Source of the DNA: Antedon mediterranea
Lineage: Eukaryota; Animalia; Echinodermata
Reading direction: 5' to 3'
Assembly: GCF_964355755.1 (NCBI RefSeq)
Contig: NC_092671.1
Location: 1,426,001 to 1,490,000 of the forward strand
Length of the DNA: 64,000 nt
The notes below the pieces were generated by a model, which made no database searches, had not been told where the DNA came from, and saw nothing but the letters and a program-made list of their open reading frames with translations. The position numbers and the translations under genes are program-made. Positions within the stretch are counted from its first letter, which is position 1; each line of letters opens with the position of its first letter. Shown here piece by piece: positions 27,292-52,221 of the stretch.

Positions 27292-27413
27292 GCCTATCTT
27301 TCAAGTTAGATGCCAAAGTACAATAGCTCTACTTAACTTACTGTAGTAATATCATTGGTGTTGTTACCCTAACATAGAGCAATTGTTTTTTGTTGAGTTA
27401 CAGATTAATCAAG

Positions 27414-28124
27414 ATGGGAGATTACAAAGTAACAAAGATTCTTGATGACAAGGGCGATATGCGGGATTGTGTCGAATTGATTCGTAAAAAAGCTGACGAA
27501 GTACCCGAAAAGATGAGATCTAAAACAAATATCATTGGTCTCCGACTCCAAGGAAATGACATCACTGATCTACCTGATTGGTTGGAAAAGTTCACAAAAG
27601 TTCAAGAACTCAATTTATCAGAAAATAAGTTTGAAAAGTTCCCGGCTGTTATTGGTGATATGGAAGCGATAAAAGTCTTAAAGATGTCGCATAACAAACT
27701 CACATCACTTCCAAAGGATATTACTTACCTTCATAGATTAGAAGAGCTTTATCTCGATTATAACGACTTCGAAGAAATCCCAGAAGTCATTTTTGAAACC
27801 AATATAAAGGAGTTGTACATCCGTAATAATAAAATCCGTTGTATCCCTGCTGGAATAGCGAAAATGAAATGCCTTGAAGTGTTAGTTGTGGATAATAATC
27901 AACTGGAAGAATTTCCAGAAGCGTTAGCTGAGATGCCAAACCTACGTGAAGTGTTTATCAAGAAGAATCAGATCGAGAGGTTACCGAGGGGGTTACTCGC
28001 GAAAATGTGTAAGCTAGAGGTCCTCGAGTTGGATGAAAACCCGCTGGATTCACCCCCTCACGAGGTGGTGATGAATGGAATCAAAGCAATGGTTAAATAC
28101 GAACAAGAGCATGAGAACGATTAA
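27414..28124 (+). CDS. Leucine-rich-repeat-only cytoplasmic protein, 236 aa, 8 LRRs plus C-terminal cap
   Basis: Long ORF with eight ~23-aa LxxLxLxxNxLxxLP repeats and the cap LDENPLDSPPHEVVMNGIKAMVKY. Acceptor TTACAG at 27403 and AAGATGG Kozak at 27414. Likely upstream UTR donor GTG|GTAAGC at 26805/26806. No signal peptide or TM segment. Confidence 0.92.
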   Translation: MGDYKVTKILDDKGDMRDCVELIRKKADEVPEKMRSKTNIIGLRLQGNDITDLPDWLEKFTKVQELNLSENKFEKFPAVIGDMEAIKVLKMSHNKLTSLPKDITYLHRLEELYLDYNDFEEIPEVIFETNIKELYIRNNKIRCIPAGIAKMKCLEVLVVDNNQLEEFPEALAEMPNLREVFIKKNQIERLPRGLLAKMCKLEVLELDENPLDSPPHEVVMNGIKAMVKYEQEHEND

Positions 28125-35500: not shown

Positions 35501-35626
35501 TTAAACTTTAACATCTTCGCCAGCAGCGAGGGAATCCAATGTCTTCTTAATTCGCAGTGTGGTTAGCCTAGCAGCTCCGTTATGATACCAACATTCTTTC
35601 ATCAGTTTTGCCATGATACGCATAGC
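35501..35626 (-). CDS. TGFBR1: TGF-beta/activin type I receptor (ALK4/5/7 class), exon 9 (last): kinase C-terminus
   Basis: [41 protein letters not shown], with acceptor TTTGCAG. Confidence 0.95.
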
Positions 35627-35866: not shown

Positions 35867-35997
35867 CTCAATAGAACTCCACCAGTTGGGGATAGAGGGC
35901 CTGTATTGATCAACACAAACAACTTTTCTCATTAAATCAATGTTGGGGTCTAACGGCACATACTCAAAGTAAGGCAAACAACTATCTTCAACGAAAC
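35867..35997 (-). CDS. TGFBR1: Type I receptor exon 8 (kinase)
   Basis: FVEDSCLPYFEYVPLDPNIDLMRKVVCVDQYRPSIPNWWSSIE, bounded by TTCCAG acceptor and GTATGT donor. Confidence 0.95.
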
Positions 35998-36402: not shown

Positions 36403-36684
36403 CTCCAATGGTACATCTTCTGGCAATCTCCCAGAAAACTAAGCCCAAGGCATAGACATCAGCTCGCTTAAAACAATCAAAGTGATGAATATTAATGGAC
36501 TCATCCAAGACCTCTGGCGACATGTAACGTTTAGTTCCGACTCGGTGGTTTGGAGCAATATCTACTTCATCCGTTGCCGAGTTATGACGCACAGCCAAAC
36601 CAAGATCGGCAATGGAGCACTGGCCGCTACGCATCACTAAGATGTTTGTGCTCTTTAAATCCCTATGTGCAATTGCTGGCTTGC
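36403..36684 (-). CDS. TGFBR1: Type I receptor exon 7 (catalytic and activation loops)
   Basis: [16 protein letters not shown]...[10 protein letters not shown]...[15 protein letters not shown]...[17 protein letters not shown], with canonical AG/GT. Confidence 0.97.
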
Positions 36685-37093: not shown

Positions 37094-37261
37094 CTTGCAT
37101 TCCAATGATTTCCATATGCAAATGAGTTAGACCATTAGCAATTGACCAGGCCATTTTAATCATTCCGTTTACAGTGATTGTTGTACGATTTAAGTAATCG
37201 TAGAGTGAGCCATACTCGTGATAGTCTGTGATCAGTAAAAGCTGCGTAGATATTCCACTAT
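37094..37261 (-). CDS. TGFBR1: Type I receptor exon 6 (L45 loop and hinge)
   Basis: [26 protein letters not shown]...[11 protein letters not shown], with canonical AG/GT. Confidence 0.96.
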
Positions 37262-38666
37262 CTGAAAGACAAAAGACGCCAGACATGTTAACATACAAAA
37301 TTCTAAAATAATGAAAATACTGTGACGCTTGGAGTGCGAGTTCAGTGGTGGGTCCAGGATTTTTATTTAGTGGGGCCTAAAAATGGTAAAATGAAATGCC
37401 TAACAGAACCTATTATCCTATCATTGGCATTGCAAATTTGGAAATGGCTAGCCTCACTTAAGTTGTTTTCACGCTGCTGCTCTAGCCCGCTACGTCCCAT
37501 TAGGACTACTCAATCAGAAGCTAAAGCAAGCAGCAGTTATAGTTCTAAGGACAGACAGTTTTGTGAAAATGGAAACTCCACTATGATTTATTGATTCCAG
37601 CTGCTACAGTAGACCCAAAAAACGGCTGGGAAAGAGTCTATTAGGACATGTCATGCTAAAATTACAAATCCCTATATTCACTGTCAGTGTCAGATATTCA
37701 TTGAATTATTATTGAAACAGTCCATTAAAGTTTGTGTTTGTAATAGGATACTTCACAATTGAAATATCTAGGGTGATGAAGTGACCCCCAGATTTGACCT
37801 TAGCAATAAAATTAACTAAAGTGACAGAAATTGAGTATTCACTTCTGTAACAAAAAAGTAATATTTATTCACATATAAAAAATGAAAAGAAACCCAAAAA
37901 CCATTGTCTGACAGACAATTTAAGTATTTGTTGCTTTAAATTACATTTTTTCAGGTAAAATAACTATCTATTATGTGACAATAAAATGACACATTCAAAA
38001 ACATTTGAAATAAAAAATATTTTTCAATAAGCGAGCAGCGTTTTTTGTAAGAAATATTTCTTGTTTAATTAATGATGAAATGTCCAAGTTACCATTAACA
38101 ATTATGTTGTTTTATTTTAATATGTTTATAAATTTGTATTTATTGAATTCATTTTTAATGATACAGTACATGTCTCACCACAGTATCCAGCCAAGCATGC
38201 AGTTTTAATTTTTCTTTTTTTTCCTATGAAAAAGGACGTCAACTACTACAATGTCATAATGATTGTCTAGACATGAGCTTATATAAAAGGATAAAGCAAT
38301 GGCATTGTAAACACACCCCAGTCAAGTACATTCAATAAATTAAAAGCCATTACAACAGGTACATGCCAACTAATTATTGTACTAACATTACAGTGCTACA
38401 ATAAATCATCAATATACTGTATATTACTGTATATAAGAATTTAAGCGTTTTGTCAGTCAAGGTAACTAACAAGACTATTTTGCATTCAGTTGTAGTTGAA
38501 CAATTTAGTGATGGTGACCCTAAACAGCATATGCTGACAATCAATGGGCCCTCATATAAACATTTACTGTATAACAAAAAAGAATGGAGTTGCTTTTTAA
38601 AAAACAGGTAGATTAGATTAACATTTTGTCATCGCATTGTGATCATTTTTTATACAGTAGTTACTG

Positions 38667-38690
38667 TATAGAGATATTAATATCTCAATA
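38667..38690. mobile_element. 24-bp hairpin micro-element with 7-bp TSD
   Basis: GTTACTG-TATAGAGATATTAATATCTCAATA-GTTACTG (palindrome with 1 mismatch). Confidence 0.6.
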
Positions 38691-38959
38691 GTTACTGTAA
38701 CAAAATATTACCTTGGATACTTTTCAGCTAACCTAACCTGGCCTACTTTTAATGTTTGATGTATGTTGAGAACAGGAACGCTAGTAGAACAAACACAAGA
38801 TAGAGAAATAACCTCATGACTTTTTACTTGACATGGTTATTATATGATCTACATTGTATGAGGGTCTGCACTAGAACAACATTCATTCTTCTTTTGTGCA
38901 AGCTTCAGGGAAAAAAACATAATAAAGTTAAAGTGTACATAAAAACTTGACAACAATAC

Positions 38960-39190
38960 CTTTATTGTCAGCTGCAATGAATCCAAGGATATTTTTGTGC
39001 CGAAGCATAACAGTTTGGTAAATTTCTGCCTCTCGGAACCATGATTTTTCCTCACGGGTAGAGAAGACCTTGACAGCGACTGGTTCGTTCCGCCAACTCC
39101 CACGATACACCTCCCCATAACGCCCTTTTCCGATACATTCTTGTATGGTAATCTGGCGAGCAATTGTACGCTGCACAAGTAGAGGAAGCC
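38960..39190 (-). CDS. TGFBR1: Type I receptor exon 5 (end of GS domain, kinase N-lobe)
   Basis: [77 protein letters not shown], close to ALK4/5/7. Confidence 0.97.
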
Positions 39191-42232: not shown

Positions 42233-42482
42233 AGCACAAGTTAGCCTAGGCCTATGTATTTTTTAGCACAAGTTAGCCTATGTATTTTTTAGCACAAATT
42301 AGCCTAGGCCTCTGTATTTTTGAGCACAAGTTAGCCTAGGCCTATGTATTTTTTTAGCACAAGTTAGCCTAGGCCTATGTATTTTTTAGCACAAGTTAGC
42401 CTAGGCCTATGTATTTTTTAGCACAAGTTAGCCTAGGCCTATGTATTTTTGAGCACAAGTTAGCCTAGGCCTATGTATTTTT
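42233..42482. repeat. ~32-bp minisatellite x8
   Basis: AGCACAAGTTAGCCTAGGCCTATGTATTTTT(T/G) iterated. Confidence 0.95.
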
Positions 42483-42746
42483 GTGTTCAATCGAGTAGCA
42501 CTGCAATGCCTATCTATTCGGTAGACAACTAAACATAGGGTGATTTATTTCATGATAAGGCATACATACATTTCTCATTCATTGGCCATTTAAAAAAGTT
42601 GGGAGATCTATAGAAATGAGGAAAACTAAACATAGAGTGTACTTTATTTCGTGATTATTACATAGAGGACACTGTATATTTTCAATTTATTTTTTTCCCT
42701 CATGGGCCACTGAATAAGTTGGGAGGTATATAAATGATGAACTTAC

Positions 42747-42974
42747 CTGATCCTGAACCAGGTAGAGTTGGATCAATGATATCAATAAGGCTAGGGCCTC
42801 CATCCAAGAACTGAGTAGTATCTGGGTCAGTGATCAACATGTTAGGCATATTCTGTTGACAATGCCGAGCTATCAAGATAATCATTATGAGGATACAGAT
42901 AAAACATATAGGCACAGCAATGAGAGCAGCAAGTTCCAGTGTATCAAACTTGTTCTTGTTACTGTCCTTTAGAT
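42747..42974 (-). CDS. TGFBR1: Type I receptor exon 4 (transmembrane helix, juxtamembrane region, GS box)
   Basis: ELAALIAVPICFICILIMIILIA TM segment, ending DPTLPGSGSG. CTAACAG acceptor, GTAAGT donor, phase 1-1. Confidence 0.95.
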
Positions 42975-43413
42975 CTGTTAGGAAAAGAATGAGTATTAGA
43001 ATAATCAAAAGATGCTGTTGGCTGTTAAGTTGTGAGATTAATAAACAACTTAGGTAAGTAACTAGAAAGAGCTCAAACCACCACCAATGCTACTGTACAT
43101 ATCAATAAAACCGTATAATAAGGCTTTACAATGAAAATCTCTATGGTGAAACTGTCCATTGCTGTGGCAAACTTGATATTTGACCAAGGCATATGGAAAT
43201 TAAATTACATGTTCCCATTCAGCTATGAATCCATCCTTTAAAATCTTATGAAAATTGGGAAATAACTTTTGAGTAATCCTGCTAACAAAATGGCAGAGGA
43301 AAATATGCAATTATTATTGCTTCCCAGATTCCATTTTTAAAAAATAAATAAAATTAATCTGAAAATCTTTGCCACACATAACATTGTAAATTACTAAATG
43401 TTTGATTCAATAC

Positions 43414-43578
43414 CTTTACAGGTCTCTTCACATAACTCTAATGTTGTAAAGCTATTCTCATTCCCTCCACATCCAGAGTACTCAAACTGTACACAACGGT
43501 TAGCTTGTGCCATGTAAGCATACCTCACGAATTCTAATCCTTCGCAAGTACCAGTGTGTAGTGGCTGGTTACATATTA
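43414..43578 (-). CDS. Kunitz/BPTI domain exon inside the receptor gene (exon 3)
   Basis: VICNQPLHTGTCEGLEFVRYAYMAQANRCVQFEYSGCGGNENSFTTLELCEETCK has six Cys spaced 8-16-7-12-3 and the FxYxGCxGNxNxF signature. 165 nt, TTTTTCTTGTAG acceptor, AAG|GTATTG donor, phase 1-1, in frame with both neighbours. Confidence 0.88.
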
Positions 43579-44001
43579 CTACAAGAAAAACAAATACATT
43601 CCTCCATACAAAAGATACAATCCACATTTTTATGTATTAGGGCTAGAGATTTTGTTTACAACTAACAAACCATTAGGGACCATGCCAAAATTATTCTACT
43701 GCAGTTTACTGATACTATTTGGTTTACAGTACAATATTTAACCTGTTTATGGAATTATTTACAAAACTTTGTCAGAGTTTCCTTAAATCTAACTAGCGAC
43801 CAAACCATGTTTATTTATATATATATATATCACCGGTATATTTTATTCAATTATACACATAAAAATCAGCAGGGAAAAAAGTAACATTTTTCAGCTGAAT
43901 TGCACTTTATGATAACAGAAAAGGAATACAATTAAAAAAAAAACACATTTTATATTAGATGCACAAATGTCAAATGTGGCAATAGACAACAATAATTGCT
44001 G

Positions 44002-44083
44002 GTAGACCATGCCGATAGTAAGTAGACCATGCCGATAGTAAGTAGACCATGCCGATAGTAAGTAGACCATGCCGATAGTAAGT
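44002..44083. repeat. 20-bp perfect minisatellite x4
   Basis: GTAGACCATGCCGATAGTAA x4, about 18 bp into the intron after receptor exon 2. Confidence 0.95.
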
Positions 44084-44101
44084 CCCATTATTGATACTAA
44101 C

Positions 44102-44401
44102 CACTTGGTATAGGTGTGTATGGCAACATTATAATGTCCAAGTTGTCATTACAGTAGTCAGCATCGTTACAACACTTCTTCCCATAAAAGTTTGATGGAG
44201 CAGACTCCATACAACTGATATGCTTTGCAGAATCGTTTTTCCCTATTGTCATGAGATCTTCTTCAAGAATACAACCTAATGAGGTTTTCAATATTCTGCC
44301 TATTCTCTGTATAGCCTTTGCACATTGTCCATTCTTTCCAGCATCGCAATAATTGGATTTACATACTCTCATATTTGGATCATCACAAGAACACAAAATA
44401 C
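44102..44401 (-). CDS. TGFBR1: Type I receptor exon 2 (activin-receptor three-finger ectodomain)
   Basis: Ten Cys including CxC at the start and the CCNDADYCN Cys-box. 300 nt, phase 1-1, TTTTCAG acceptor and GTTAGT donor. Confidence 0.93.
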
Positions 44402-44931: not shown

Positions 44932-45004
44932 CAGTGACACAATGTGGAACAAAACACACTACAAAAACAGTAAAAGCTAAATATCTACAACTTATTAGTT
45001 CCAT
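44932..45004 (-). CDS. TGFBR1: Type I receptor exon 1 (signal peptide)
   Basis: MELISCRYLAFTVFVVCFVPHCVT hydrophobic leader, AACATGG Kozak, GTAAGT donor, phase 1. Full model is 1704 nt, 567 aa (512 aa without the Kunitz exon). Confidence 0.88.
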
Positions 45005-47227: not shown

Positions 47228-47718
47228 GTAAATGTCTTATACTCTATAGGCCTACTGTAGTAGAAATATGAAAACAAATAGCAATTATTCTTTCATAGAT
47301 GCCCCTGAAAAAATAATTTAAACATTATTTTGTTACATAGGCAATTTATGTCACATTCATTTAATTGACCAAAAACATTTACATAAAACTGTAACTTAAA
47401 TAGTTAAATTAATATATAAATTCATTATTTTTGTATCAATCTATGTAAAAGTGAATAACTATTAAAACTACAAAATGGCCTATTCAAAAGTTTTTGTATT
47501 AATCGTCTACACCTGCTACTGCATACGAATAATAGTAATAATGTTATATTATAATATTGCCTTAGGCCCTAGTATATTTCATTGTGTAAATTGTGTAAAA
47601 AAATATATATACCACCATGTCTTTAACATGCTACAAATGGGAGAACAATAAGCCCCTCCATCCTCGCATAATAAGTAATAATGTACGCACATATATTACA
47701 CATACACATATATTTCAG

Positions 47719-48540
47719 GTGTGAATGTATGCTTCAGTAGTGTAATGGCGACTGCATGGTACATACTGTACACATAATCACATATATTTTCATATTTCTG
47801 CAGAGTGTGAATGTACGCTTCAGTAGTGTAATGGCGACTGCATGGTACAGTACTGTACACATAATCACATATATTTTCATATTTCTGCAGAGTGAGAATG
47901 TACGCTTCAGTAGTGTAATGGCGACTGCATGGTACAGTACTGTACACATAATCACATATATGTTCATATTTCTGCAGAGTGTGAATGTACGCTTCAGTAG
48001 TATAATGGCGACTGCATGGTACATACTGTACACATAATCACATATATTTTCATATTTCTGCAGAGTGAGAATGTACGCTTCAGTAGTGTAATGGCGACTG
48101 CATGGTACATACTTTACACATAATCACATATATTTTCATATTTCTGCAGAGTGTGAATGTACGCTTCAGTAGTGTAATGGCGACTGCATGGTACATACTG
48201 TACACATAATCACATATATTTTTATATTTCTGCAGAGTGTGAATGTACGCTTCAGTAGTGTAATGGCGACTGCATGGTACATACTGTACACATAATCACA
48301 TATATTTTCATATTTCTGCAGAGTGTGAATGTACGCTTCAGTAGTGTAATGGCGACTGCATGGTACATACTGTACACATAATCACATATATTTTCATATT
48401 TCTGCAGAGTGTGAATGTATGCTTCAGTAGTATAATGGCAACTGCATGGTACATACTGTACACATAATCACATATATGTTCATATTTCTGCAGAGTGTGA
48501 ATGTACGCTTCAGTAGTATAATGGCAACTGCATGGTACAT
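47719..48540 (+). repeat. 86/87-bp minisatellite x10 overlapping the ASB8 acceptor and start codon
   Basis: Units start at 47719, 47805, 47892, 47979, 48065, 48151, 48237, 48323, 48409 and 48495. Each carries ATGGC(G/A)ACTGCATGGTAC and is preceded by an acceptor-like YAG. Confidence 0.97.
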
Positions 48541-48751
48541 CATGGAGACAGCACAGCAACATTATCAGTTGTCTGAACGTTTGATACGAGCTGTAAGTGA
48601 CTGTCGTCTGAATGCACATGACACAGTTCTAGAACTCATCAACAAAGGAGCTGATGTAAACCAAGCCCATGGAACCCTGTTACCTCTTCATTGTGCATGC
48701 ATGGTCAGTGATAATGAGATGGTCCAACTGCTGCTACGTAAAGGGGCCAAG
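48521..48751 (+). CDS. ASB8: Ankyrin repeat and SOCS box protein 8, coding exon 1
   Basis: MATAWYIMETAQQHYQLSERLIRAVS...GADVNQAHGTLLPLHCACMVSD matches the vertebrate ASB8 N-terminus as recalled (MSSSMWYIMQSIQSKYSLSERLIR...HGTLKPLHCACMVSD). AAG|GTAAGT donor, phase 0. Confidence 0.93.
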
Positions 48752-48816
48752 GTAAGTACATGCTTAGTGTAAGGCTCGTTCAAATATGAATCCCCAAACC
48801 TTGTCTCTTGAAAATT

Positions 48817-48920
48817 GGGCGTGTGGCGCAGGGTGGACTACTGATTGTGAGACCGAGGTTCGAATCCAACTCTCGCCGCATTGCTTGTATCTTTAGGAAA
48901 GATACTTTACTTACGTTTGC
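48817..48920 (+). mobile_element. tRNA-derived SINE, 5' half (interrupted)
   Basis: A-box TGGCGCAGGGTGG and B-box GGTTCGAATCC. Same head as the copy at 53492. The 3' half resumes at 50902. Confidence 0.8.
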
Positions 48921-48995
48921 CAGTGTCGATTTTTGGTAATTTACACCCTAGATGGCTGGAAATGGTACTCTTGCACATAACATTTATGTTGAATG

Positions 48996-50250
48996 ACACC
49001 TCTAGTTTGGCCAGAAATAACACTTTTTATAGCGCGCTAGCAAACAGCAAAACGATCATAGCCTACTTTTCCGCCGCGCCGGTAAACATACGCGAAGAAA
49101 CATTTTTTTGCGTTCATTACGAACGTCAGGGGGAAGTCCTCAATGAAAAAAAATAGGCCTAAGCCTACTCATCAGTAGGACTAACTCTAGTTGGCCGGAA
49201 ACGAAACTTTATAGCGCACTAGCAAACAGTCAAACCATCGTAGCATACTTTTTCCGCCAGTAAACATACACGATAAAAAATGTTTTTGCGTTCAATACGA
49301 ACGTCAAGGGGAATTCCCCGATGAAATAAAACTAGGCCTACTCATCAGTAGGACTAACTCTAGTTGGCCGGAAACGAAACTTTATAGCGCACTAGCAAAC
49401 AGTAAAACCATCGTAGCATATTTTTTCCGCCAGTAAACATACGCGATAAAAAAATGTTTTCGCGTTCAATACGAACGTCAAGGGGAATTCCCCGATGAAA
49501 TAAAACTAGGCCTACTCATCAGTAGGACTAACTCTAGTTGGCCGGAAACGAAACTTTATAGCGCACTAGCAAACAGTAAAACCATCGTAGCATACTTTTT
49601 CCGTCAGTAAACATACGCGATAAAAAAATGTTTTTGCGTTCAATACGAACGTCAAGGGGAATTCCCCAATGAAATAAAACTAGGCCTACTCATCAGTAGG
49701 ACAACTCTGTAGTTGGCCGGAAAGGACACTTCATAGTGTGCTAGCAAACATCACGATCGTAGCCTACTTTTTCCGCCGGTAAACATACGCGATAAGAAAA
49801 ATTTTCTGCATTCATTACAAACGTCAAGGGGAATTCCCCGATGATATAAAAAATGCCTACTCATCAGTAGGACAACTCTGTAGTTGGCCGGAAAGGACAC
49901 TTCATAGCGCGCTAGCAAACAACCCGATCAGAGCCTACTTTTCCGCATGTAAACATACGCGATAAATGAAAAAATATGCCTACCGTACTCATCAGTAGGC
50001 AACTATAGTTGGCCGGAAACGACACTTCATAGCGCGTCAGCAAACATTAAAACGATCGTAGCCTACTTTTTTTTTCCGCCGGCGGGTAAACATATGCGAT
50101 AAAAAACATTTTTTTTGCGTTCAATTACAAACATTGGGGGCAAGAAGTCCCGATAAAATATAACTAGGCCTACTCATTAGTAAGACACCTCTAGTTGCCC
50201 GGAAATAAGACTTCATAGCGCACTATCATATAGGAAAACGATCGTAGCCT
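48996..50250. repeat. ~173-bp tandem repeat, about 8 copies
   Basis: Units CTCTAGTTGGCCGGAAAC...CCTACTCATCAGTAGG start near 49000, 49185, 49358, 49532, 49705, 49876, 50003 and 50189. Confidence 0.93.
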
Positions 50251-50267
50251 TCTTGAATGTATTATAC

Positions 50268-50288
50268 CAGGGAGTTGTAAACTCCCTG
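50268..50288. mobile_element. 21-bp hairpin micro-element with 7-bp TSD
   Basis: ATTATAC-CAGGGAGTT gta AACTCCCTG-ATTATAC. Confidence 0.8.
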
Positions 50289-50901
50289 ATTATACGATCA
50301 AAGCAGCTAGCATTGAATTGCGCCTAGAAAATTAATCACGCCTTTGTCATTTCATGATGTGCGTATGTTACCGACGAAAGAGTAAATCCCACCGATAGAG
50401 TCGATTAATTCAGTGTGATATTGAAAATAATAATATCATTGATATTTATTTTTAATACACATAACATTTTTACAAGAAAAACAATACAATCAATCATTTG
50501 CTTTATTTACAATACAAGTTACCACATTTTAGACAACAGCCAATACTAGAGATCGAAAGAGAGACATGGCAGTAACAAAACACGTGTTTACATCTCTCAG
50601 CGGCGGCCGGTGAAAGCGAGTCTCGGTTGTTTAACCCTTTGTTACGCAGTCTTTTGTTTCTTTGGCTTGTATCGTCTAGTGGTCATGTCACGTGTCTCGT
50701 ATGCATTAGGCTCTTTATGCATGCCGCGCCTCAGCTCTAGAGAAAGTACCTGCCTGTTAATCTATTCTTAGATTGGTTGTGGTTGATATTTTTAAGCGTC
50801 ACGGATAAGGTTTTAAGCGTCACGGCCGACCGTAAAGCGTCACGGTAGAGAACCCAAGCGTCACAGTACCATGACGCTTCAAAGGCCTGGGGAGAACACT
50901 G

Positions 50902-51101
50902 CGTTAGCCTCTCTCCACCCAGGTGTATAAATGGGTACCCGGTTAGATCAAGACACAACTTTGCGCTGATTACTAGCTGCATTATGGGAGTATGTTTCCA
51001 TACGTGTTTGATCCAAAAAATGATTGGGGTAATAATGTTCAGCGCTTAGAGAAGCTTGCTTGTAGAGCGCTATATAAGAGTGAACTATTATTATTATTAT
51101 T
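50902..51101 (+). mobile_element. tRNA-derived SINE, 3' half
   Basis: CTCTCCACCCAGGTGTATAAATGGGTACC central (CORE-like) motif, L2-type GCGCTATATAAG end and (TTA)n tail. Confidence 0.8.
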
Positions 51102-51591
51102 CCCACTTTTCTTGGTCTGCAAAAGTAATCTCGAAAAGAAGCCCGTCTCAAAAGCAAGCCCACTGTGTTCCTTATAAGATAGTATGGCCTTTTTTTCGAG
51201 AAAGACTATTTGAATATCAAAGGAACAAGGTGATTTAATGCCAGATAACTTGTGATGCATATATAATTTATGATAGAGTTTATATCGTACATTCATTTTA
51301 CAGTTTAAAAATGTTATTTTGATCACTAATATGTAAACTTGGCAGGTAAGGTAATTACACAAATTTTACAGCATTCATTTCGAAATGAAGCCCCCTCTTT
51401 AGTTTGCAAAAGTAATCTTGAAAAGAAGCCCACAAAGAGTACTAAACAAATGGGCTTCCTTTCAAGGTTTTATTTTATGCCACAAAGAAGTCCATTCCCT
51501 ATGCCTAAAATAATTATGGTTTATCCATCCTTTAAATGACTGTTGGATGTGAAAGAAATAATAAAATAATTCAATGTTTGTGTTTAACTAG

Positions 51592-52221
51592 GTTGATAGT
51601 GTAGATGGCTACCATAGAACTGCCCTTCACTATGCAGCAGAAAAGGATCCAGAATGCCTGGAGTTGTTACTGCTTCACAAGGCCAATCCAGACTCATTAG
51701 ATGCCAATAAGAACACACCACTCCATTGGGCCAGCTTCAAGAACAAATCTGAATGTGTAAGATTACTTCTAAGGTATGGAGCTTATGTTGATGCTCTTGA
51801 TTATAATGATGATACACCACTACTCTGGGCTGCGCACAAATGTAATTACGAGAGCATTAGTATTTTGTTAGAATACGGTGCTGACGTACATACCATAAAC
51901 GCTGGCTTGCAAACGTCAATATCCCGTGCTGCTTGTTTGCTGGCAAGCGGGTTGGAACCTCGGGACGAGCTCAGTCTTAACTTACTTATACAAGCTGCAG
52001 GTCAGTTTGACCTTCGGATGGACGGTCAGTTACCAAGTCTAGTGGAACGTGATCGAGAAATGTGCAATCGTATGTTGGCATATTGTCGAAACTGTCGTAG
52101 TTTACAGCAGCTGTGTCGATATAGTATACGTAAATGTTTACAAGGTAAACATCTACCTAAAGTCATTGCTAAACTTCCTATTCCAGTCATAATGCAACGG
52201 TTTCTGTTACTGCAAACATAA
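51592..52221 (+). CDS. ASB8: ASB8 coding exon 2 (ankyrin repeats and SOCS box)
   Basis: VDSVDGYHRTALHYAAEKD...TPLHWASFKN...DYNDDTPLLWAA, then SOCS box SLQQLCRYSIRKCL...LPIPVIMQRFLLL*. Acceptor AACTAG at 51591. Total 286 aa. Confidence 0.95.
   Translation, partial: VDSVDGYHRTALHYAAEKDPECLELLLLHKANPDSLDANKNTPLHWASFKNKSECVRLLLRYGAYVDALDYNDDTPLLWAAHKCNYESISILLEYGADVHTINAGLQTSISRAACLLASGLEPRDELSLNLLIQAAGQFDLRMDGQLPSLVERDREMCNRMLAYCRNCRSLQQLCRYSIRKCLQGKHLPKVIAKLPIPVIMQRFLLLQT

Follow-up and report, generated by a model that had tools for sequence, protein, structure and literature searches.

The type I receptors of the ALK4/5/7 group (TGFBR1, ACVR1B, and ACVR1C, and Alk4/5/7 in sea urchins) are built from an ectodomain with a cysteine box, a transmembrane (TM) helix, a GS box, and a kinase. 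The accessible portions of two studies present a single Alk4/5/7 as the Nodal receptor of the sea urchin (PMC11239237) and report Nodal-receptor function for this sea-urchin ortholog, not for crinoids (PMC2772021, PMC11239237). Kunitz domains are known from other proteins: HAI-1/2 (SPINT1/2), TFPI, bikunin, and the C5 domain of collagen VI alpha-3 share the fold of the exon analyzed here, with PDB matches at E-values from 2e-19 to 1e-8, and none of them is fused to a signalling kinase, unlike the echinoderm receptor described below. The KPI domain of APP is a true inhibitor with an arginine at P1, and collagen VI C5 is a non-inhibitory Kunitz domain. In APP751/770, as here, a Kunitz exon lies in the ectodomain of a single-pass protein, and isoforms with and without it are described in the part of PMC3045794 that is available. 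However, APP is no kinase receptor, and in the echinoderm receptor P1 is unconserved and skipping is predicted in one species only.

The receptor of Antedon mediterranea has the layout of the ALK4/5/7 receptors, its ectodomain being probably of their three-finger, ligand-binding type, and adds to it a Kunitz domain in the stalk. This Kunitz-bearing receptor is real, expressed, ancient, and phylum-wide. Because type I architecture is near-invariant in the other animals sampled, an extra domain shared by a whole phylum constitutes a rare molecular marker of echinoderms. The domain also sits in a receptor that sea-urchin laboratories routinely manipulate, and it offers a natural experiment that sets a folded stalk module against shedding and receptor-complex geometry.

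The Kunitz Exon and Its Inclusion in the Receptor Transcript

The DNA analyzed is a window of 64,000 nt from Antedon mediterranea (NC_092671.1, positions 1,426,001–1,490,000), and all coordinates given here are those of the window. The receptor gene is encoded on the minus strand by nine exons. The coding part of exon 1 (44932..45004; spliced contig and gene model) contains the start codon and a hydrophobic leader, likely a signal peptide; exon 2 (44102..44401; Pfam E 0.098 alone, alignment, and spliced contig) encodes the Cys-rich, Activin_recp-like ligand-binding domain and the proline-rich first half of the stalk; exon 3 (43414..43578; Pfam, spliced contig, gene model, and alignment) encodes the Kunitz/BPTI domain (amino acids 125–179, phase 1-1, P1 = Glu137); exon 4 (42747..42974; spliced contig and gene model) encodes the second half of the stalk, the TM helix, and the start of the GS box. 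The GS box ends in exon 5 (38960..39190; contig, gene model, and Pfam), which continues into the kinase N-lobe. The kinase extends through exon 6 (37094..37261), with the end of the L45 loop, and exon 8 (35867..35997), with the C-lobe, both placed by gene model and RefSeq comparison; exon 7 (36403..36684), with the catalytic loop (HRD, DLG), and the coding part of exon 9 up to the stop codon (35501..35626) are placed by contig and gene model. This nine-exon model is identical, letter for letter, to RefSeq XP_071941724.1 ("TGF-beta receptor type-1-like isoform X1"); the RefSeq isoform X2 of Antedon is shorter and still has the Kunitz domain. An ankyrin-repeat and SOCS-box (ASB-type) gene (48431–52221, plus strand) lies head-to-head with the receptor gene, and a leucine-rich-repeat coding stretch (LRR_4, E 6e-29) occupies 27378–28121 on the plus strand. 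Short tandem repeat arrays were noticed by eye at 42260–42480, 44000–44085, and 47696–48470, in introns and upstream DNA.

The first-pass annotation had described exon 3 as a stop-free 165-nt exon of phase 1-1, with six Kunitz cysteines and good splice sites, and it was exact in all these respects, coordinates included. The exon has a pyrimidine-rich AG acceptor at 43578 (...ttcttgtag/) and a GT donor at 43414 (AAG/gtattg) that is on par with the other splice sites of the gene. Its translation matches Pfam Kunitz_BPTI (PF00014) over model positions 1–53 of 53, with 63.9 bits for a cut-off of 21 (E 1.5e-17), as well as 116 PDB sequences, the top ones being SmCI, boophilin, TFPI, and bikunin. 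The six cysteines are spaced by 9, 17, 8, 13, and 4 residues, and the framework residues Gly12, Tyr23, Phe33, Gly37, Asn43, and Phe45, which together with this spacing characterize Kunitz domains, are all present. Compared with most orthologs, Antedon has one additional residue in the second gap, and this extra loop residue is found in crinoids and in one ophiuroid-like sequence. The cysteine pattern occurs only once in the window in a six-frame scan.

Five sequencing runs contain this stretch, three of which were aligned to it, and none is recorded as RNA; run X1 is taken to be RNA by guess, and its contig skips GT-AG introns. In this one run, from one study, a 1624-nt contig with a depth of 92.4 covers 44102–44275, 43414–43578, and 42746–42974, and its joints 42974–43414 and 43578–44102 skip 439 and 523 nt with GT-AG ends; these are the two junctions, 44102>43578 and 43414>42974, by which the exon had been proposed to enter the receptor. 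That the exon encodes a Kunitz domain and is included in the receptor transcript is thus practically certain. The same contig extends across the kinase exons into the 3′ UTR, and exons 1 and 2 are joined in a second contig of run X1; in runs X2 and X5, the long pieces listed read through the introns. Two other explanations of the exon were rejected: a chance ORF or pseudo-exon, in view of the Pfam E-value and of the spliced inclusion, and an exon of another transcript, because one contig carries both the Kunitz exon and the kinase.

Skipping of the exon, also put forward in the first-pass annotation, is clean as a matter of arithmetic: the model gives 567 amino acids with the Kunitz exon and 512 without, and both frames are open. 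No skip joint (42974–44102) is listed among the joints of the contigs from the single run X1, and, because contigs drop rare forms, this absence is no evidence against skipping. In Lytechinus variegatus, exactly 54 amino acids distinguish the RefSeq isoform X1 (616 aa; XP_041481444.1, identical by look-up to GenBank AIQ77880.1) from X2 (562 aa), and the gap in X2 extends from two codons ahead of the first cysteine to after Cys-Lys, with borders that match those of the Antedon exon. This comparison of exon borders, made in two species only, supports a common exon in Antedon and L. variegatus and, for the latter, a predicted isoform that skips it. The idea of a splice switch therefore draws support from a predicted L. 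variegatus isoform that lacks exactly the Kunitz domain, but none from Antedon.

The position of a mutated residue gives an indication for a third species. The activated-receptor clone of Paracentrotus, a sea-urchin mutant in wide use, is mutated at glutamine 265 (Q265D; PMC2772021, accessible part). The matching residue is at 269–271 in the Kunitz-bearing urchin proteins and at 217 in the skip form. Because 265 is near the former and far from the latter, the experimental clone likely contains the Kunitz domain, and the morpholino-rescue assays that already exist can test the domain directly.

Identity of the Receptor

The assignment to the ALK4/5/7 type made in the first-pass annotation is borne out by both structure-database ranking and phylogeny. 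The best PDB match of the Antedon kinase is TGFBR1 (553 bits), followed by BMPR1B (461), ACVR1 (458), ALK1 (392), and the type II receptors (185–216). In a tree with seven BMP-type outgroup rows, Antedon falls inside ALK4/5/7, apart from ALK1/2 and ALK3/6, with a split supported at 100/99. The GS box and Ser/Thr kinase of a type I receptor are recognized by Pfam (TGF_beta_GS, E 8.7e-11; Pkinase, E 2.9e-35), and a hydropathy peak at amino acids 189–220 corresponds to a single TM helix. The Activin_recp match of the Antedon ligand-binding exon is below cut-off, E-values of 0.1 or lower being obtained for 10 of 14 orthologs (best 2.8e-4); the cysteines of this exon and its CC-x-CN box align with those of TGFBR1. 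Structure prediction added little: AlphaFold2 models of the Antedon protein have a mean pLDDT of 40.9 at full length and 43.0 for the ectodomain, and a structure search (Atlas) gave no usable feature match, all structure matches having a TM score below 0.4. A profile of four ectodomains searched against PDB retrieved only Kunitz proteins among the best 60 of 143 matches, so its outcome concerns the Kunitz domain alone.

Compared with the Smad2/3 type of L45 loop, that of Antedon, NKDSGIST, shares NKD with NKDNGTWT, unlike IKGTGSWT or MTSRNSST, and is diverged in its second half. In the two crinoid receptors, the GS box (42747–42770, minus strand) and the L45 loop (37261–38970, minus strand) are both divergent: they read TLPGSGSG, with fewer Ser/Thr, and DNKDSGISTQ, versus TTSGSGSG and DNKDNGTWTQ in most other ALK4/5/7 receptors. 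The loop, near-invariant in most other ALK4/5/7 rows, is also diverged in asteroids (NKDSGMVT) and in a holothurian (NKDNGLCT). The divergence of the crinoid GS box and L45 loop could affect activation or the choice of Smad. At the other end of the protein, the echinoid Alk4/5/7 (P0006, P0011, P0123, and P0124) carry at the C terminus an additional proline-rich tail, about 50 residues long, that ends in Tyr-containing motifs and is absent in the other echinoderm classes. In the Holothuria leucospilota protein P0139 (1008 aa), a long insert inside the kinase resembles by eye a retroelement reverse transcriptase, and this NCBI model is probably an annotation chimera.

Distribution and Origin of the Domain

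The first-pass annotation knew of no type I receptor of this architecture. Although absent from the other receptors examined, the architecture is echinoderm-wide and already in RefSeq and Pfam. Among the best 120 of 3868 matches, PF00014 is listed on 11, which belong to eight echinoderm species (Antedon, Anneissia, Amphiura, Patiria, Acanthaster, Asterias, Diadema, and Lytechinus pictus) and three further sequences; carriers in Strongylocentrotus, L. variegatus, Diadema setosum, Asterias rubens, and Holothuria leucospilota emerged from cluster look-ups. By scanning 334 fetched proteins, 307 of them with kinase motifs, with a Kunitz profile built solely from unrelated control domains, we detected the domain in 23 of the 307, namely 18 records of 13 echinoderm species and 5 sequences placed beside these by clustering or grouping. 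All five echinoderm classes are represented among the 13 species: crinoids, ophiuroids, asteroids, echinoids, and holothuroids. Every one of the 14 aligned orthologs matched the Pfam Kunitz family.

The domain was absent from the receptors fetched for the hemichordates Ptychodera (both isoforms), Glandiceps, and Saccoglossus, and from the amphioxus, lophotrochozoan, arthropod, and vertebrate receptor rows among the matches listed. A search with the region itself returned, in the best 120 of 629 matches, eight proteins with both Kunitz domain and GS box, all of which were in the PF00014 carrier set; it missed the asteroid carriers, so its sensitivity is limited. Of 150 representatives at 50% identity, 136 showed kinase motifs, and a Kunitz domain was present in that of Patiria alone, in a sampling where clusters can hide members. 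There may thus be a rare carrier outside echinoderms. A different extra domain was observed in P0097 (Logan contig, 609 aa), an ALK4/5/7-type protein with an N-terminal Ig domain (Ig_3, E 4.5e-12) placed before Activin_recp, TM helix, GS box, and kinase. It is sister to Pecten on the tree and may represent a type I receptor that acquired an added domain independently, in an animal akin to bivalves; it is a single contig that could be chimeric.

In a tree of kinase sequences only, 12 carriers form one clade (100/99), and in a GS/kinase tree that includes BMP-type outgroups, the 8 carriers used are monophyletic (98/98) inside ALK4/5/7; rows missing an anchor motif, two ACVR1B in the former tree and one ALK3/6 in the latter, were left out. 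The Kunitz sequences themselves hold almost no signal of shared origin. From the position of the domain, its borders, and the kinase tree, we infer a single gain in the echinoderm stem lineage, which we consider very probable. The exon-shuffling origin suggested in the first-pass annotation stands in so far as this symmetric, phase 1-1 exon was likely inserted. A recent, crinoid-specific insertion was rejected, since other classes include carriers and all carriers form one clade in the kinase tree.

Several database records (XP_071941724.1, XP_798456.4, and XP_041481444.1/AIQ77880.1) are this protein or its orthologs, with PF00014 precomputed on cluster representatives; the architecture is already present in automatic annotations, under no other name than "TGF-beta receptor type-1(-like)". 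In the literature, no description was found by combining Kunitz with Alk4, type I, activin, or echinoderm TGF-beta receptors in searchable text, outside which lie key subscription papers such as the original surveys of sea-urchin TGF-beta receptors, and specialists may have noticed the domain earlier. The word "Kunitz" does not appear in the available main texts of PMC11239237 and PMC2772021. The legend of Figure S2 in the latter, as far as accessible, names only the TM, GS box, L45 loop, and ligand-binding cysteines, and the figure may bear on novelty. The Holothuria scabra receptor published in 2025 has 381 amino acids with its GS loop at 63–72, which is too short for the ectodomain, and neither "Kunitz" nor "BPTI" occurs in the accessible part of that paper (PMC12295056).

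Conservation, Stalk Geometry, and Possible Roles

The six cysteines are invariant in the 14 aligned orthologs. Between classes, identity is 0.42 for the Kunitz domain versus 0.37 for the ligand-binding domain; for the whole Kunitz domain it is 0.418 versus 0.396 among unrelated control Kunitz domains (42 domains from four proteins, 39 of them from two). Because identity barely exceeds this control background, it is apparently the fold that has mainly been retained. Some features do stand out from the controls: a glycosylation sequon, preserved across four classes, in 10 of 12 carriers (all 10 non-crinoids, and neither crinoid) versus 1 of 42 controls, a proline at BPTI position 9 in 9 of 12 versus 7%, and an acidic residue at position 42 in 11 of 12 versus 11 of 42, Tyr23 being enriched as well. 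Of these, the enriched non-framework positions 9 (Pro) and 42 (acidic) could mark a docking face.

Conservation that is largely that of a framework would also be expected of a near-neutral passenger, that is, an old insertion retained only since damage to a domain encoded by a constitutive exon would cause the receptor to misfold, and the predicted skip isoform suggests that the receptor can be built without the domain. However, clean loss is simple for a symmetric exon, yet the full form is present in every echinoderm species fetched; moreover, the sequon has persisted in four classes and, between Lytechinus and Strongylocentrotus, identity is higher in the Kunitz domain (0.88) than in the ligand-binding domain (0.71). 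We therefore consider a passenger very unlikely.

The least conserved part of the domain is the protease-binding loop, with a between-class identity of 0.23 versus 0.37 at the other non-Cys positions. Across 15 sequences, P1 is E, E, P, D, D, T, N, D, T, G, G, S, N, N, and N, without a single Lys or Arg; P1′ is Gly in both crinoids and neither Ala nor Gly in any of the 13 non-crinoids, so that the canonical-inhibitor combination of a conserved P1 with a small P1′ is lacking. The net charge of the domains varies from −7 to +2. Since P1 varies freely, a conserved inhibitor role appears unlikely, and the protease docking envisaged in the first-pass annotation is disfavoured on the same ground, as far as a single conserved protease bound by the canonical loop is meant. 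This would leave an active inhibitor with lineage-specific targets, whose variable loop tracks differing host or microbial cell-surface proteases. BPTI mutagenesis has shown a bulky P1′, and Pro, Asp, or Gly at P1, to be unfavourable for inhibition; the former is found in most non-crinoids and the latter in several sequences, and crinoids have a one-residue insertion in the loop. On the other hand, fold and framework are intact, control Kunitz domains are likewise variable at P1, so that variation alone does not exclude activity, and P1 alone does not predict specificity (PMC3209443, accessible part). Taken together, an inhibitor of this kind seems improbable.

As to geometry, a disulfide links the first cysteine of a Kunitz domain (Cys I) to the last (Cys VI), and the points where the chain enters and leaves the domain adjoin. 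By a rough hydropathy estimate, 84–93 amino acids separate the Cys box from the TM helix in the Kunitz-bearing forms, compared with 30 for the skip isoform and 34–37 for hemichordates and amphioxus; the stalk minus the Kunitz domain has about 30–38 residues. Given the Cys I–Cys VI link and the ordinary length of the residual stalk, the domain most likely branches off sideways from a stalk of ordinary length. The first-pass annotation had suggested that the module could lift the ligand-binding domain off the membrane, and an in-line spacer would fit a domain that lies between the two and adds 54–55 residues. But entry beside exit, and a residual stalk as long as that of the hemichordate and amphioxus outgroups, speak against this role, which we regard as barely credible.

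We tentatively rank first, before docking, inhibition, passenger, and spacer, a steric shield, a reading which falls short of being probable. In this reading, the folded domain that the Kunitz exon adds to the stalk of echinoderm Alk4/5/7, the type I receptor for Nodal/activin/TGF-beta, would protrude as a non-inhibitory side knob and protect the part of the stalk next to the membrane against proteolytic shedding. According to the accessible part of PMC13272619, human TbetaRI is shed by ADAM17 at A127/A128, near the membrane, and an antibody bound to TbetaRI blocks this cut by steric hindrance. The 12–15 residues from the last Kunitz cysteine to the membrane are exposed, and a sheddase could still cut there. 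The crinoid domains, without the sequon and with Gly at P1′, the Antedon allele with Lys at P1, and the few enriched non-framework positions also count against a non-inhibitory shield.

The side knob might instead serve to dock a partner, such as ACVRII, the EGF-CFC co-receptor Cripto, the matrix, or an endocytic receptor, and so tune the choice or range of ligands, with skipping as the off state. The domain has been kept in 13 of 13 echinoderm species although its in-frame loss is easy, and the enrichment of Pro9, Tyr23, and acidic 42 over controls is consistent with such a face. In the parts of the sources available, ALK4 requires a co-receptor bridge for Nodal (PMC11751877), and the APP Kunitz exon sets a precedent for an isoform-specific module (PMC3045794). 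By contrast, an identity near that of unrelated Kunitz domains, and so wide a range of net charge, fit one conserved partner poorly; we hold docking to be possible, if rather unlikely.

Whether as shield or as docking site, the domain might be a phylum-specific module in place since the echinoderm stem, whose inclusion or skipping would act as a regulated switch of shedding or co-receptor pairing and hence of Nodal range. This larger scenario is doubtful; if true, it would represent a receptor-level innovation dating from the time when the echinoderm body plan arose, in the workhorse receptor of sea-urchin axis studies.

Allelic variation in Antedon bears again on the possibility of an inhibitor with lineage-specific targets. 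Runs X1 and X5 have Lys at P1, and run X2 has the reference Glu; the loop of the Lys allele is an inhibitor-like C-K-G. This Glu/Lys polymorphism in the crinoid C-E/K-G loop, and the fact that all four differences observed in the Kunitz exon change an amino acid, are points in favor of such an inhibitor. But exon 2, the neighbouring ligand-binding exon, is just as rich in amino-acid changes, with 8 non-silent and 1 silent base differences, and the polymorphism is thus not specific to the loop. A rough comparison, based on several contigs and on listed differences only, gives 12 differences in 366 non-silent ectodomain sites versus 4 in 366 silent sites gene-wide (P = 0.037), which hints at an excess of amino-acid changes in the ectodomain. 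Allelic differences in 43414–43578 and 44276–44368 are almost all amino-acid changing, and the kinase exons show few differences.
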